From: Candidatus Zixiibacteriota bacterium
Lineage (GTDB): Bacteria; Zixibacteria; MSB-5A5; GN15; FEB-12
Assembly (NCBI GenBank): GCA_024277795.1
Contig: JAJRUL010000152.1
Location: forward strand, 2,006 to 66,005
Reading direction: 5' to 3'
DNA: 64,000 nucleotides
Below the pieces are notes generated by a model. The model searched no databases. It was not told the DNA's origin and saw nothing but the letters and a program-made list of their open reading frames with translations. The translations under genes were made by a program, and so were the position numbers. Shown piece after piece: positions 44,288 through 50,109 of this stretch. Position 1 is the first letter of the stretch, and every line of letters begins with the position of its first letter.

Positions 44288-44352
44288 GGACTGACAAAGT
44301 AAACTGCCATGAAATACGTGTCAATCTGCTTTTGGTAACAGTTTGAAAAATG

Positions 44353-44613
44353 TTAATTATTGTTTATCAAATACAGGGTGATTGATGCAATCTGTTTTTC
44401 AGTCAACTTAGCCCGTTCTCCGTATTTTTTGACCAGTTGAGGCCACTCATTGTCGCTCTTTTTTGTCGGTTTTGGCAGGCGATGGCAGGTTTTGCAGTTA
44501 GCTCGGAACGCTATTTCTCCCTCAGATCGCATAGTTCGATTCGTCTTTGGTGTGCAAGCAGATAATAATCCCAAACCAACAAGGATGGAGACAACAGCAG
44601 ATTGGCGGATCAT
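44353..44613 (-). CDS. small monohaem c-type cytochrome-like lipoprotein
   Basis: 86 aa with the lipobox LLSAC and a single CKTCH haem-binding motif. There is a 4-nt overlap with the upstream barrel gene. Confidence 0.6.
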   Translation of the reverse strand: MIRQSAVVSILVGLGLLSACTPKTNRTMRSEGEIAFRANCKTCHRLPKPTKKSDNEWPQLVKKYGERAKLTEKQIASITLYLINNN

Positions 44614-45332
44614 AAGTCAATCCCCATGAGTAGGCGAGCACGTGCATCGTTGCTTTGATCGGTAATGCCTACAGCATAACCGAAAGTGTACCAAATGGGG
44701 CCTGAAGCAAGAGATATTGTAGGACCAATATATGAATTGGTACTACTGTTGGTATTCTTGACAAACTCAATACGTGAGGAAGATTCGATACCAATCGACA
44801 CTTTGAAATTCACCTCCCATGTCAGACCAGCATCAAAACCGATTTCATGCACGGGATCACCCGGAGCCCAAAAGAATTCATAAACGGGGTTTAGTGCTAT
44901 GGTGAATTGATTAATATCTGTGCCGAGAAGAAGTTTTGCTTCAGCTTTATTCTGTTGACTGAAGTTTAGTTTGCGACGGTATTCGAGGTAAAGCACAGGA
45001 TCAAGAGGGATACGTCCTGGTTCACTCAGGCGATATCGTGTACGAAGTTGGACAGCATCCCAAAGAAAAGGCTCACCATCTTGTTGAGAAAAGATTTGAT
45101 ATATGGAGAGATCCCAACGAGGTGTAAGCCCATGTTCAACTTCTATTCGATACTCCCAACTATTGACATCGTCGAGCTTTGTTGTTTGATAGAACTCAAG
45201 CTCAGAATCATCTTCAGCCAATGTAACTGGGTGGTAGCTCCAGACAAATCTGCGACGATCAGCCATCAGATTGGGGGCAGATACTGCAAAAAGTAGCCCT
45301 GATAGTAATAATGACTTAAGAATCAGTTTCAT
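44610..45332 (-). CDS. hypothetical outer-membrane beta-barrel-like protein
   Basis: Signal peptide MKLILKSLLLSGLLFAVSA and alternating amphipathic beta-strand pattern. GGAG lies 7 nt upstream of the ATG. Confidence 0.55.
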   Translation of the reverse strand: MKLILKSLLLSGLLFAVSAPNLMADRRRFVWSYHPVTLAEDDSELEFYQTTKLDDVNSWEYRIEVEHGLTPRWDLSIYQIFSQQDGEPFLWDAVQLRTRYRLSEPGRIPLDPVLYLEYRRKLNFSQQNKAEAKLLLGTDINQFTIALNPVYEFFWAPGDPVHEIGFDAGLTWEVNFKVSIGIESSSRIEFVKNTNSSTNSYIGPTISLASGPIWYTFGYAVGITDQSNDARARLLMGIDL

Positions 45333-45360
45333 AATTGAACTCCAAATACCTTGTTCATCT

Positions 45361-45385
45361 AATGAAAATGAATTTCATTTTCATT
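45361..45385. promoter_or_regulatory. 25-bp perfect palindrome (AATGAAAATGAA-T-TTCATTTTCATT), candidate operator or 5'-UTR hairpin
   Basis: I checked every position 45361-45385 by hand for pairing around 45373. It is built from two direct AATGAA hexamers and their inverted copies. It lies at about +8 to +32 of the predicted transcript. Confidence 0.6.
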
Positions 45386-45398
45386 TAATATCGGACTG

Positions 45399-45427
45399 AT
45401 AATATCCAGATACTGGATAGTTGTCAA
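45399..45427 (-). promoter_or_regulatory. near-consensus sigma70 promoter TTGACA-N17-TATTAT with a 7-3-7 palindrome in its spacer
   Basis: On the minus strand, TTGACA is at 45427-45422 and TATTAT at 45404-45399. TATCCAG-ATA-CTGGATA (45403-45419) fills the spacer. The predicted TSS near 45392 gives a ~60-nt leader to ATG 45332. Confidence 0.6.
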
Positions 45428-45720
45428 TAGATAAATTGATGAATGAATAGGGCGGTTTGTTTTTATCTCAGGCTATTATTTGCCGGATTTATATTTCAAT
45501 GTACGTGATGATATTTGAGTATACAGAAAGATGTGAGCTATAGCTATATTGATGAGGTTTGTCTGCTGTTCTGTAGGGGGGCAAACTTTCTGTCTCTTTG
45601 TGTTTAGTCTTGATTCGTCTTAGCAGATTGTTGCCTGTCTCAAGCATCCATTAGTATTTTGTAGTATTTTGTCGGCTTAGGCTTATAGGGGGAAGGATTC
45701 CGAGCAGGACAATACCCGAT

Positions 45721-45804
45721 AAAAAAACCCAAGCAGGTTGCAAAAGACCTGCCTGGGTGGACGATATTAGGTAATCCACAGAAAGAGTAACACTTTCCGA
45801 TTGC
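45721..45804 (-). ncRNA. predicted ~84-nt small RNA (orphan promoter + three hairpins + intrinsic terminator)
   Basis: The transcript is predicted from the promoter at 45811-45839. It contains hairpins GAAAG/CTTTC and GTGGA/TCCAC. The terminator CCCAGGCAGGT-cttttgca-ACCTGCTTGGG is followed by U7 (45727-45721). The single non-Watson-Crick pair in that stem is G-U only on the minus strand. Confidence 0.5.
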
Positions 45805-45810
45805 ACACCA

Positions 45811-45839
45811 ATATTAACTGACAAGACAAGTTTTGTCAA
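45811..45839 (-). promoter_or_regulatory. near-consensus sigma70 promoter TTGACA-N17-TAATAT
   Basis: On the minus strand, TTGACA is at 45839-45834 and TAATAT at 45816-45811, with an exact 17-nt spacer. No protein gene lies downstream before the terminator. Confidence 0.55.
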
Positions 45840-46316
45840 GAGAAAAAAGCATTCCTTAAACGGTTTTTTTGGTATGGCAGATTTTGCGATTGTATTATTG
45901 TAAATTTTCTCCCAGAAGACAGGATTTTCAGCAGTTTTAGCAGTGGCGGTAATATGTAATTCTTTTAACTACAGCTTGCTCACACGAGCAGAATGTACAG
46001 AACTGTGTTGATAGTTTGTTAGTAACTTGTGGAGAACTTTCTAACTTATTGATAGTCAATGAAGAAGGGGTTGTTGTAATATATTTGTTAGTTCTTAACA
46101 GAACCCTAACAAATAAATGGCCAGTATATTGTTGTTATACAATGTATTGCAGATAATGAAAAATTATTGTATAGTGATGAAGATTGAAGGTAATCTGAGT
46201 CGACCATCATCAATTGTTGTAGCTTACTGATTATCAACAGAATACGATTTATTCATAGAAAATACCATTTTTAGTGGGTAGTGCAATATCAACCACTATA
46301 TCTTGTAGCCACTCAC

Positions 46317-46432
46317 CGCCAGCCGAGGGGGGACCCCTGGTTTGCGGAATACTAGTAAAAACAAGTTTAGGATGAGAGACTCAGGTTGACTCAAGTTGGA
46401 CATGGATGAATTACTTGAATTGACTTGTTTTT
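46317..46432 (+). promoter_or_regulatory. candidate structured 5' leader of nrdJ
   Basis: There is a GC-rich hairpin CCGCCAGCCGAGGGG-GGA-CCCCTGGTTTGCGG (46317-46347). AAAAACAAGT (46357-46366) pairs with ACTTGTTTTT (46423-46432). That helix encloses an inner TCAAGT/ACTTGA hairpin. The whole structure ends 38 nt before the TTG start. Confidence 0.3.
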
Positions 46433-46470
46433 AGTCTATTGGAGTTTCTCGCGAGATAGGGAGGTTTACT

Positions 46471-49400
46471 TTGAAGATACAGCGGTTTTTCACTCGTGAA
46501 GGGGAGTCGCCGTACAGTCGCATTAATTTTGCCAAACGGTCATCCAAGATTGTTAATCCTGACGGTTCTACTGTTTTTGAGTTGGATAATATTGAAGTAC
46601 CTGAATCGTGGTCTCAGGTAGCAGTAGATATACTTGCACAGAAGTATTTTCGTAAGGCGGGTGTTCCACAATATGATACAAACGGTCAACCTGTTATTGA
46701 TGACAAGGGAGAGCAGGTAACAGGCTCAGAAACGGATTCCCGTCAGGTTTTTAATCGTATGGCGGGTTGTTGGAAGCACTGGGGTGAGCAGAACGGGTAT
46801 TTTGATACAGATGCCGATGCTCAAGCGTTTCATGATGAGTTGTGTTATATGCTTGCGGCCCAAATCGCTGCACCTAACTCACCTCAGTGGTTCAACACTG
46901 GGCTGAACTGGGCGTATGGAATCAATGGTGTTTCTCAGGGGCATTATTATGTCGACCCTGATACTCACAGATTGGAAAAGGCTTCTAGTGCGTATGAGCG
47001 ACCTCAGCCTCATGCTTGCTTCATTCAATCAGTTTCTGACGACTTAGTGAATGAGGGTGGTATTATGGATCTGTGGGTTCGTGAAGCTCGTTTATTTAAG
47101 TATGGTTCAGGGACCGGCTCTAATTTTTCATCAATTCGTGGGGCTGGTGAGAAACTTTCTGGTGGAGGGAATTCTTCTGGGTTGATGTCATTCCTTCGTA
47201 TTGGTGATCGTGCGGCGGGAGCAATCAAGTCTGGTGGGACAACACGTCGCGCGGCAAAGATGGTGACTCTTGATCTTGATCATCCTGATATTGAAGAATT
47301 CATAGCGTGGAAGGTTGTTGAGGAGCAAAAAGTAGCTGCTATGGTTGCAGGATCGCGTATGATTCGCCAGCAATTATCTGGTTTGGTCAATTCGGCACGT
47401 ATCTCAGGGAATAATGGTGATTCTGTTTATGAGACTGATCCGAATAAGAACAAAGAATTGAAATCCGCTATTCGTACTGCCCGTTCACTTGGTGTACCGA
47501 ACGAATATATCAAAAAAATTCTCGATCTTTGTTCTCAGGGAATTGGTGAAATAGAATTTATTTCTTTGGATACAAATTGGGAAGGGGAGGCATATTCTAC
47601 CGTTTCAGGACAGAACTCTAATAATTCTATAAGAATACCAAACAAGTTTTTTGAAGTACTGCGTGAGGGTGGAAAGTGGAATCTTGTCCAGCGTACTGAC
47701 GGAGCAACATTCAAGACCATAGATGCAAGTGAGTTGTGGGATAAAGTGTGTCATGCTGCTTGGGCATGTGCTGATCCGGGAGTGCAATTTGATACGACAA
47801 TTAATGAGTGGCATACCTGTGCTGCTGATGGACGAATCAATGCTTCGAATCCTTGTTCTGAGTATATGTTTCTTGATGATACTGCATGCAACTTAGCTTC
47901 AATCAATCTTGTGCGTTTTCTTTCAGATGATGACAAATTTGATTTGGTCGGGTATAAGCATGCGATTCGTTTGTGGACTGTTGTTTTGGAGATTTCAGTT
48001 CTGATGGCTTCTTATCCGTCTCCTCCTATCGCTCAACGCAGTTATGAATATCGGACGCTCGGTTTGGGTTATGCCAATCTTGGTACCATGCTTATGCGTC
48101 TTGGTATTCCGTATGATTCTAATGAGGCGTATACATGGTGTGGAGCGTTGACATCTATTCTGACCGGGCAAGCGTATGTCACATCTGCTGAGATGGCACG
48201 TGAGCACGGCCCTTTTCCGACATATTTCCGTAATAGAGATCATATGCTGAGAGTAATGCGAAATCATCGCCGAGCGGCCTACAACGCTGACAAATCAGAG
48301 TATGAGAATTTGACAATCAAGCCGACTGGGATCAATGCGAACTATATTCCTGAAGAGGTTGTAACATCAGCTCGTAAGGTATGGGATGAAGCGGTGGAAG
48401 CTGGAGAGGTACATGGGTATCGAAATGCTCAAGTATCTGTTATTGCACCGACGGGTACAATCGGTTTAGTGATGGATTGTGATACGACAGGTATCGAGCC
48501 TGATTTTGCTTTAGTTAAGTTCAAAAAGTTAGCGGGTGGCGGATATTTCAAGATTATCAATAATTCTGTTCCTATTGCTCTGAAAAAGTTGGGATATGAT
48601 GACAAGCAGTCTGAAGAGATTATCAGATATGCAACAGGAAGTAAGACTCTGAAGAAGGCTCCTTTTATTAACCATGAATCGCTTTTAGCTAAAGGTTTCA
48701 CAGAGGAAGAGCTTAATAAGATTGAGATCGCCATTGAGAATGCGTTTGATATTACATTCGTATTTAACCGACATGTTCTTGGTGATGAATTCCTGATCGA
48801 GACACTTGGTTTTTCCAAGGTTGCTATTGATGATTGGAATTTCAATCTTTTGCGTGAGCTCGGTTTTACTAAAGATCAAATCGAAGCGGCAAATCTGTTC
48901 TGCTGTGGTACTATGACTGTTGAGGGTGCTCCTCATTTGGAAGAGAAGCATTTGTCTGTTTTCGACTGTGCGAACCGTTGCGGAAAAAGTGGTAAGCGAT
49001 TTATTCATTATGAATCACATATTAAGATGATGGGCGCGGCCCAACCGTTTATTAGTGGTGCTATTTCTAAGACAATAAATATGCCTGCTGAAGCGACAAT
49101 TGATGATGTCAAGCGTGCGTATCGTTTGGCTTGGGAGACAATGAATAAAGCGATTGCGATTTATCGCGATGGATCGAAGTTGAGTCAGCCATTGAACTCT
49201 TCATTGATTGATGATGATGAAGATGATACTTCAATGTCAGTTGAAAAAGTTGCAGAGAAAATGGCTGAGAAAGTCGTCTATCGTTACATTGCCAAGCGTC
49301 GCAAGCTTCCACATCGTCGCGGGGGGTATACACAAAAGGCTGTTGTTGGTGGTCACAAGATTTATTTACGGACGGGTGAGTACTCCGATGGCTCACTAGG

Positions 49401-50109
49401 TGAGATTTTCCTTGATATGCATCGTGAAGGTGCTGCTTTCAGGGCATTGATGAACTCGTTTGCAATTGCAATCTCACTTGGTTTGCAACATGGTGTTCCT
49501 CTTGAAGAGTATATAGAGGCATTTCTCTTTAGCCGTTTTGAGCCGAATGGCATGGTACAAGGGAACCGTGCAATCAAGCGTGCAACGTCAATTATAGATT
49601 ATATTTTCCGTGAACTGGCGATCACCTATCTCGATCGGAACGATCTTGCTCATGTGAGTGAAGAAGATCTTAGGCATGATGCGCTTGGTTCGCCTTCAGA
49701 TGAAACAGTTGAGTATGAAGAAGAAGAAGCGGTTAGTCATGGAATCAATGGCAGTCGCGGATATGATGACATTCAATCGGATCACGTCAGTCGTTTGAAG
49801 GATTCAAACATGACTGACGGCAATGGAAGCAATGGTAATCCAGGAGGAAATGGCCATGGTGGGACGATTCAGGTTGAGGCTACAAATGCGACAACTGCTC
49901 AAAAAGAGACGGTGCTTGAGTATGTCGCAACGGCAACAACAGTTGGCGAAAACCGTATTAGTGGCCAACAACTCAAGCATGAAATCCGAACGGCAAGATT
50001 GATGGGATATGAGGGAGATATGTGTGGGGAATGCGGACAGTTTACTATGGTACGCAATGGTACATGTCTCAAGTGTGATACCTGCGGAGCGACCTCAGGC
50101 TGTTCCTAG
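46471..50109 (+). CDS. nrdJ: class II (adenosylcobalamin-dependent) ribonucleoside-di/triphosphate reductase
   Basis: The TTG start is preceded by GGGAGG (46459-46464). Motifs are the N-terminus FTREGESPY...[16 protein letters not shown], the thiyl-radical loop [16 protein letters not shown], and [21 protein letters not shown]. The C-terminus has the zinc ribbon CGECGQ...CLKCDTCG and a terminal SGCS. A low-complexity Asp/Gly/Asn insert lies near the C-terminus. I saw no intein motifs. Confidence 0.95.

Follow-up and report, generated by a model that had tools for sequence, protein, structure and literature searches.

The sequence analysed here, referred to below as the window, is a stretch of 64,000 nucleotides from Candidatus Zixiibacteriota; the Zixibacteria are an uncultured candidate phylum. 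Within it, a gap of 1138 bp (45333–46470) separates a minus-strand gene for a 240-aa outer-membrane-barrel-like product (44610–45332, hereafter the barrel gene) from nrdJ (46471–50109, plus strand). No ORF with family support was found in this gap, in agreement with the preliminary description of the window, which had placed a putative small RNA unit in a 1.1-kb ORF-free gap before nrdJ. The gene adjoining the barrel gene (44353–44613, minus strand) codes for an 86-aa product with a lipoprotein-type signal (LLSAC) and a single CKTCH haem-binding motif; given this motif, its label of 'cytochrome' is reasonable, though the product has no Pfam match. The gap holds the small RNA (sRNA) unit, which is single copy within the window and comprises the following elements:

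45843–45870, minus strand: UP-element-like A-tract (45870–45864) and T-tract (45848–45843), just 5′ of the −35 box
45834–45839, minus strand: −35 box, TTGACA
45811–45816, minus strand: −10 box, TAATAT, with a 17-nt spacer
45804, minus strand: predicted transcription start, the G of GCAA
45755–45804, minus strand: invariant 50-nt 5′ domain, GCAAUCGGAAAGUGUUACUCUUUCUGUGGAUUACCUAAUAUCGUCC(A/G)CCC
45779–45799, minus strand: hairpin P1, 7 bp (CGGAAAG, 45799–45793, paired with CUUUCUG, 45785–45779), 7-nt loop UGUUACU
45759–45777, minus strand: hairpin P2, 4–5 bp (GGAU/GUCC, extendable with U–R), 11-nt loop UACCUAAUAUC
45721–45758, minus strand: intrinsic terminator, 11–12 bp GC-rich stem, 8-nt loop, U7 tail

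The promoter elements originally read on the minus strand, namely TTGACA (45839–45834), 17 nt and TAATAT (45816–45811), are all present, and relatives keep them: among 70 distinct homologous upstream regions, 68 have TTGACA, followed after a spacer of 16–17 nt by TAnnnT in a fixed register, the −10 box always ending 6 variable nucleotides before the invariant GCAA. The base directly 5′ of GCAA varies (T, C or A), and invariance starts exactly at the G. Since the −10 box lies 6 nt before the first invariant base, transcription would start at about G45804, giving an RNA of about 84 nt. Further upstream in the same 70 regions, positions −20 to −14 before TTGACA are A-rich and positions −9 to −5 read A/T-TTTT in 50–69 of them, tracts that resemble UP elements as known from the rrnB P1 consensus. 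The sRNA's own promoter is near-consensus, with UP-like tracts, and is kept in sequence and register across homologues.

Promoter-like and terminator-like sites occur in the 4-kb region at the frequency found in shuffled sequences (7 versus 9.9 expected for promoters, 2 versus 3.0 for terminators), so that the single-sequence observation alone does not go beyond chance; the predicted 88-nt RNA folds at −29.7 kcal/mol (z = −4.5), and 0 of 200 dinucleotide shuffles fold as well. It is the comparative evidence across loci that makes the promoter–terminator unit significant.

Homologous loci were collected with the barrel protein, not the RNA, as the anchor. Nearly all relatives of this protein belong to Candidatus Zixiibacteriota MAGs, the more distant ones being from Calditrichota and others; the best match besides the protein itself is 68% identical, and an exact-sequence look-up of the window's own barrel protein returned no encoding contig. 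The intergenic DNA of 31 loci from GTDB species representatives was then compared by blastn and nhmmer with the whole intergenic region of the window. About 130 nt (window positions 45850–45719) are 80–91% identical in 14 of the 31 loci, and in a fifteenth (L013) the unit is cut by the contig end. The unit always lies 5′ of the barrel gene and on the same strand in these loci; the adjacent barrel protein is only 47–66% identical, and the rest of the spacer cannot be aligned. Three further loci obtained by protein look-up (L097, L099 and L101/L102) bring the protein-anchored loci to 18. A metagenome scan with a pattern in which 23 stem bases were fixed and both loops left as N gave another 65 loci; note that, because these 23 core positions are fixed by the pattern, their unbiased invariance rests on the 18 protein-anchored loci. 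The distinct related loci that carry the unit number 73, from Zixibacteria-type MAGs and metagenome contigs, with one copy on each contig, and the usual site of the unit is between nrdJ and the pgsA-pgpA-cinA operon.

A covariance model of the family, R1, was run on the 18 barrel-anchored loci that have no exact match (Calditrichia, Poribacteria, Glassbacteria and some Zixibacteria-type genomes): only the truncated L013 scored, the others giving E > 0.3, and a search by eye for an analogous promoter and terminator unit in these loci found none. As R1 finds no diverged copy, the family looks all-or-none. A mobile-element origin was considered and rejected, the sRNA having no match among viral contigs or in phage and plasmid collections. 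We regard it as a single-copy, vertically inherited gene of the Zixibacteria-type lineage.

The 5′ domain is identical in all 18 protein-anchored loci. The 42-nt segment TCGG...GTCC was compared in 79 copies, of which 65 come from pattern-anchored loci, 13 from protein-anchored loci and one from the window. In 75 of them it has the same sequence, also at all 19 loop positions that the pattern left free, and the remaining four differ by one or two bases in the P2 loop. The only variants anywhere in the 50-nt domain are C35U and A38U, both in that loop, and the A/G alternative at position 47; the first 50 bases are letter-identical in about 80 distantly related Zixibacteria-type genomes, and nearly all copies share the core unchanged. 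As a yardstick, the pgsA gene of the same loci is 56–69% identical to that of the window at the DNA level, with a mean third-codon-position identity of 37% (range 30–44%), which means that neutral sites are saturated. Conservation of the degree seen in the 50-nt domain is normally confined to tRNA- or ribosome-class RNAs.

Minimum-free-energy folding and RNAalifold both place two hairpins in this domain. The first, originally drawn as GAAAG/CTTTC, is present within CGGAAAG/CUUUCUG. The second had been drawn as GUGGA/UCCAC, a pairing that is possible, but the minimum-free-energy fold has GGAU/GUCC instead. The P1 and P2 pairs never vary across the family and, without any sequence variation, there is no covariation for or against these hairpins. 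A loop–loop kissing interaction of UGUUA with UAAUA was rejected, as it is broken by the A38U variants. Several metagenome contigs or stretches begin at the invariant core or no more than a few tens of bases from it (L081, L092, L071 and L102, the last starting 2 nt before GCAA), probably because an identical 50-mer in co-occurring species forms a branch point in the assembly graph; such contig ends call for caution in assembly and binning but say nothing about where a transcript ends.

The unit ends in the textbook terminator of the preliminary description, with its GC-rich stem, 8-nt loop and U7: the stem spans 45758–45727 and has 12 pairs if the closing A–U is included, with seven T at 45727–45721. 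Across 45 distinct sequences, 98.7% of the stem cells are paired, values that 0 of 500 shuffles reach, while slid controls are 37–56% paired. The outer CCC/GGG pairs are fixed; the inner pairs and the loop vary freely, yet the stem stays paired, and RNAalifold gives the same structure. A covariation check, which had been recommended at the outset, bears out the stem, with both-sided (compensatory) changes at 6 of 10 pairs in the 45 sequences along with strand-specific G–U pairs. As first pointed out for the window, its only non-Watson–Crick stem pair is G45753–U45732, which would be A–C on the plus strand; in the family, G–U pairs occur at 5 stem positions (in 19 of 45 sequences at one of them). 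Since the plus strand would have A–C mismatches at these places, selection acts on the hairpin as a minus-strand RNA.

The conservation of the promoter, hairpin sequences and terminator in related genomes had likewise been proposed as a check, and all three are kept in the 73 distinct loci, which back the claim of a small RNA of about 84 nt made from its own promoter and terminator. We consider the anatomy of the gene and its conservation as established. Judged from sequence comparison, positions 45804–45721 of the minus strand very probably constitute a stand-alone, trans-acting non-coding RNA gene of about 84 nt, and this gene of the Zixibacteria-type lineage appears to be real, strongly selected and apparently undescribed. 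Transcription would be driven by a strong promoter of the sigma-70 type that belongs to the gene itself (UP-like A/T tracts, TTGACA, 17 nt, TAATAT), and would stop at the gene's own constitutive intrinsic terminator. The functional part would be the 50-nt 5′ domain, composed of a 5′ tail and two small hairpins and with every base under purifying selection, and the terminator would need only its shape. The RNA would act in trans and be functionally independent of nrdJ and of the pgsA-pgpA-cinA operon.

The sRNA forms a new family, in form a classical stand-alone sRNA gene. Searching the whole window with Rfam 15 (4227 models) at the gathering threshold returned only a tRNA-Leu elsewhere in the window, and the sRNA region, for which such a search had been suggested, has no match at threshold; a tRNA/tmRNA scan found nothing in this region either, and no description of a small RNA or riboswitch of Zixibacteria was found in the literature. 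When matches down to E ≤ 10 are considered, the best one in the gap is NsiR1 (RF02399), at 45778–45719 and on the correct strand, with a score of 23.5 bits against a gathering threshold of 39 (E = 0.05 for a 1.2-kb search). NsiR1 is a cyanobacterial sRNA found in tandem arrays, whereas the Zixibacteria sRNA is single copy; the likeness lies in a model of about 60 nt ending in a GC-rich terminator. Indeed, the alignment consists essentially of the terminator stem and the U-run, leaving the invariant 5′ domain unmatched, so that the hit is explained by the terminator.

Among better characterized RNAs, RybB, MicA and Spot 42 share with the Zixibacteria sRNA a sigma-70 promoter of their own, a size of about 80–110 nt and 2–3 hairpins, the last of which is a GC-rich terminator with a U tail; an AU-rich single strand before the terminator and a syntenic position are further features in common with enterobacterial-type sRNAs. 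They are not, however, related to it by sequence or through Rfam; its host lineage is a candidate phylum without described sRNA biology, and its whole 50-nt body is invariant, stems included, whereas only short seeds are invariant in enterobacterial-type trans-encoded sRNAs. Yfr1 of cyanobacteria and RsaE/RoxS of Firmicutes are likewise short, phylum-wide, independent units with hairpins flanking a conserved sequence. The strictly conserved part of Yfr1 and RsaE is an unpaired motif of about 10–16 nt and their stems covary; by contrast, the stems of the Zixibacteria sRNA show no variation, so that its conservation exceeds theirs, and it has no sequence similarity to them. With domain IV of SRP 4.5S RNA and with tRNAs, it shares base-by-base conservation over deep divergence, a strong UP-like promoter, a single copy and a fixed neighbourhood. 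Unlike these housekeeping RNAs, it matches none of the SRP, tmRNA, RNase P, 6S or tRNA models; it is also much shorter than 6S or RNase P, and no associated protein gene was found.

Several other readings of this DNA have to be weighed against that of a trans-acting RNA gene. A DNA-level element, such as a protein-binding site or a recombination target, or a chance pairing of promoter and terminator, is very improbable. Although promoter- and terminator-like matches do occur at chance frequency in the single window and invariant DNA could serve as a protein-binding site, a chance pair is excluded by the 73 distinct homologous loci; moreover, the invariant block opens precisely where a conserved promoter would place +1, gives way to a covarying hairpin with one-strand-only G–U pairs and then to a U-run, and its 50 contiguous bases far exceed typical operator or att sites. 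We also take the non-coding nature of the RNA as established, and hold it to be still more improbable that the unit is a small protein gene, be it the 62-aa ORF at 45651–45839 or an 8-codon frame (GUG-UUA-CUC-UUU-CUG-UGG-AUU-ACC-UAA). One frame is indeed open across the invariant core in all loci. On the plus strand, each of the three frames meets a stop within the core. Codon-periodic conservation, named in the preliminary description as the sign that the 62-aa ORF is the real product, is not what is seen: conservation is flat at 100%, without periodicity, and ends at the terminator. The core is devoid of any synonymous difference while pgsA third positions are saturated. The TTG start of the 62-aa ORF is the −35 box itself, 5′ of the predicted transcript start, and its C-terminal half falls in the freely varying terminator and flank. 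As for a start nearer the core, the triplet directly 5′ of GCAA could serve as one in many loci, yet in many others it is ACG, TCG, GAG or CTG; the loop variants CCTATT and CTTATT abolish the stop of the 8-codon frame, and the small protein reading has no Pfam matches.

Improbable as well, though less so than these two, is a cis-acting leader (riboswitch or attenuator) of the barrel/pgsA-pgpA-cinA operon, with the invariant domain as the sensor of a ligand or factor and the terminator as the expression platform. Like terminator-type riboswitches and attenuators, the sRNA is a promoter-proximal structured RNA, often 5′ of the same operon, and it ends in a terminator, as many riboswitches do. 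In 31 of the 43 loci with enough downstream sequence, it is followed on the same strand by the barrel gene (20 loci) or directly by pgsA (11 loci); an adjacent pgsA or barrel gene is always on its strand, as a leader would show, and pgsA starts only about 85–100 nt past the terminator in some loci. In the other 12 of the 43, however, something else lies downstream, and at least 6 loci (L034, L040, L043, L057, L070 and L090) have a convergent gene next. In addition, in 42 of 42 loci pgsA has a conserved promoter to itself, placed as for a leaderless mRNA; a separate promoter with an operator-like palindrome also serves the barrel gene, 180–840 nt further on, and no riboswitch family matches even at E ≤ 10. 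Finally, the 5′ strand of the terminator varies (CAGG, TAGG, CAGA, CGGG or ATGG) while everything upstream is invariant, so that no conserved antiterminator pairing is possible and the terminator is the end of a gene rather than a switch. The unit thus departs from terminator-type riboswitches in having no obligatory downstream gene, no antiterminator, and downstream genes with promoters of their own, and we consider its independence from its neighbours as established. On the other side, nrdJ lies just upstream in 41 of the 48 loci with enough sequence, divergent in 31 and co-directional in 10.

Granted a trans-acting RNA gene, it may act by base-pairing or by binding a macromolecular partner. 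A classical base-pairing sRNA with several seeds, in which the unpaired 5′ GCAAU, the loop UGUUACU and the loop UACCUAAUAUC would each act on several mRNAs, possibly with an Hfq-like chaperone on the AU-rich stretch and the U-tail, is a conceivable but rather unlikely mode of action. Such sRNAs typically have this anatomy (own promoter, about 84 nt, AU-rich single strand beside a terminator with a long U-tail), and multi-target sRNAs can be very conserved. Yet the stems are invariant like the loops and substitutions are confined to the largest loop, the opposite of the usual seed-only conservation; furthermore, no above-background pairing was found with the initiation regions of the neighbouring genes (33–47 distinct sequences per gene), duplexes with those of nrdJ, pgsA and pgpA across loci being no better than shuffled controls. 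Complements of 9-mers of the sRNA in about 1 Mb of related DNA showed none that recurs at a consistent place, in what is a crude count with strands pooled and a uniform expectation. A full-length RNAduplex search over the window was uninformative (mean −21.7, sd 5), its top non-self hit being antisense to a coding region. Pairing with, or mimicry of, E. coli 16S, 23S and 5S rRNA gave longest matches of 10 nt, which 2–9% of shuffles reach and which are not significant after correction for the six tests made. A CsrA-type sponge was also considered, in view of two GGA motifs 21 nt apart; both motifs lie in stems.

The pattern of constraint is informative in this respect. Seed-type sRNAs keep short unpaired seeds and riboswitches keep pocket bases, with stems that covary in both, whereas tRNAs and domain IV of SRP RNA are constrained base by base, the RNA being read by several macromolecular surfaces at once. 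In the Zixibacteria sRNA, both stem strands are as invariant as the loops and changes occur only in one loop, which points to recognition of the whole RNA by a partner rather than to a simple antisense seed; combined with a near-consensus promoter with UP-like tracts, this pattern favours a trans-acting RNA bound by a protein or RNP. Our tentative preference, going by the sequences, is therefore for an sRNA that would be read whole, and sequence-specifically, by a conserved macromolecular partner. This partner could be a protein that the RNA sequesters or scaffolds, a housekeeping RNP, or the translation or transcription machinery. It is unlikely that the sRNA, instead of regulating under particular conditions, is a hitherto unrecognised housekeeping RNA of the candidate phylum, constrained in the manner of tRNA or SRP RNA and serving a conserved protein machine of translation, transcription or RNA metabolism as its RNA subunit or obligate partner. 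Multi-seed base-pairing ranks next after the partner reading, and what probability remains falls to other readings.

With 50 nt unchanged while neutral sites are saturated, this block is among the most strongly selected non-coding sequences outside rRNA and tRNA, and selection of such strength implies an essential, sequence-specific reader. Knowing the partner could bring to light a new RNP or global regulator. The invariant 50-mer also provides a specific lineage marker or probe in metagenomes and metatranscriptomes, a ready query for transcript mapping and a known break point of metagenome assemblies, and the R1 model can seed an Rfam family.

The comparison of loci also yielded observations on the neighbouring genes. 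The promoter of pgsA, TTGAC(A/T)-17-TAnnnT (mostly TA(A/C)CTT), lies 7–9 nt, usually 8, before the ATG in the 42 distinct loci; in the window (region 44324–44285, minus strand), its −35 box is at 44324–44319 and its −10 box at 44301–44296. With a promoter abutting the ATG and no Shine-Dalgarno sequence, the pgsA mRNA is probably leaderless. In L097, L098, L099 and L101, the operon runs pgsA-pgpA-cinA-thpR/ligT, the last gene belonging to the 2′,3′-cyclic phosphodiesterase / 2′-5′ RNA ligase family; CinA carries a KH domain, and RNA-handling proteins are thus habitual neighbours of the sRNA.

The separate promoter that had been assigned to the downstream operon at 45427–45399 (minus strand) is real. 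Next to this barrel/cytochrome promoter, TTGACA-17-TATTAT, a perfect AT-rich palindrome, AATGAAAATGAA-A-TTCATTTTCATT, lies at about +5 (45386–45361); promoter and palindrome together span 45427–45361 on the minus strand. Both are kept in relatives with or without the sRNA; L008, L030 and L098 have them 5′ of the barrel gene. The palindrome resembles Fur-family boxes built of GAAAAT/ATTTTC hexamers, and in the Glassbacteria locus L105 the barrel/cytochrome pair lies beside genes for ZnuA, an ABC transporter, MntP and a TonB-dependent Plug receptor; together, these features suggest metal-regulated expression of the barrel/cytochrome genes. In three Poribacteria loci (L021, L024 and L025), the barrel promoter is followed not by the AT-rich box but by another palindrome, CTGAGACTGAGTCTCAG, suggesting a different repressor in that phylum.

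Upstream of nrdJ (46000–46037 and 46264–46310, plus strand) lie a conserved array of TGTnGA repeats with a spacing of about 11 nt and two palindromes about 30 bp apart, ACCATTTTTAGTGGGT and CCACTATATCTTGTAGCC, which are NrdR-box-like by comparison with the consensus. Since repeats and palindromes are kept in both orientations of nrdJ relative to the sRNA, divergent and co-directional, they belong to nrdJ, which in nearly all loci starts with a TTG codon after a strong AGGAGG.
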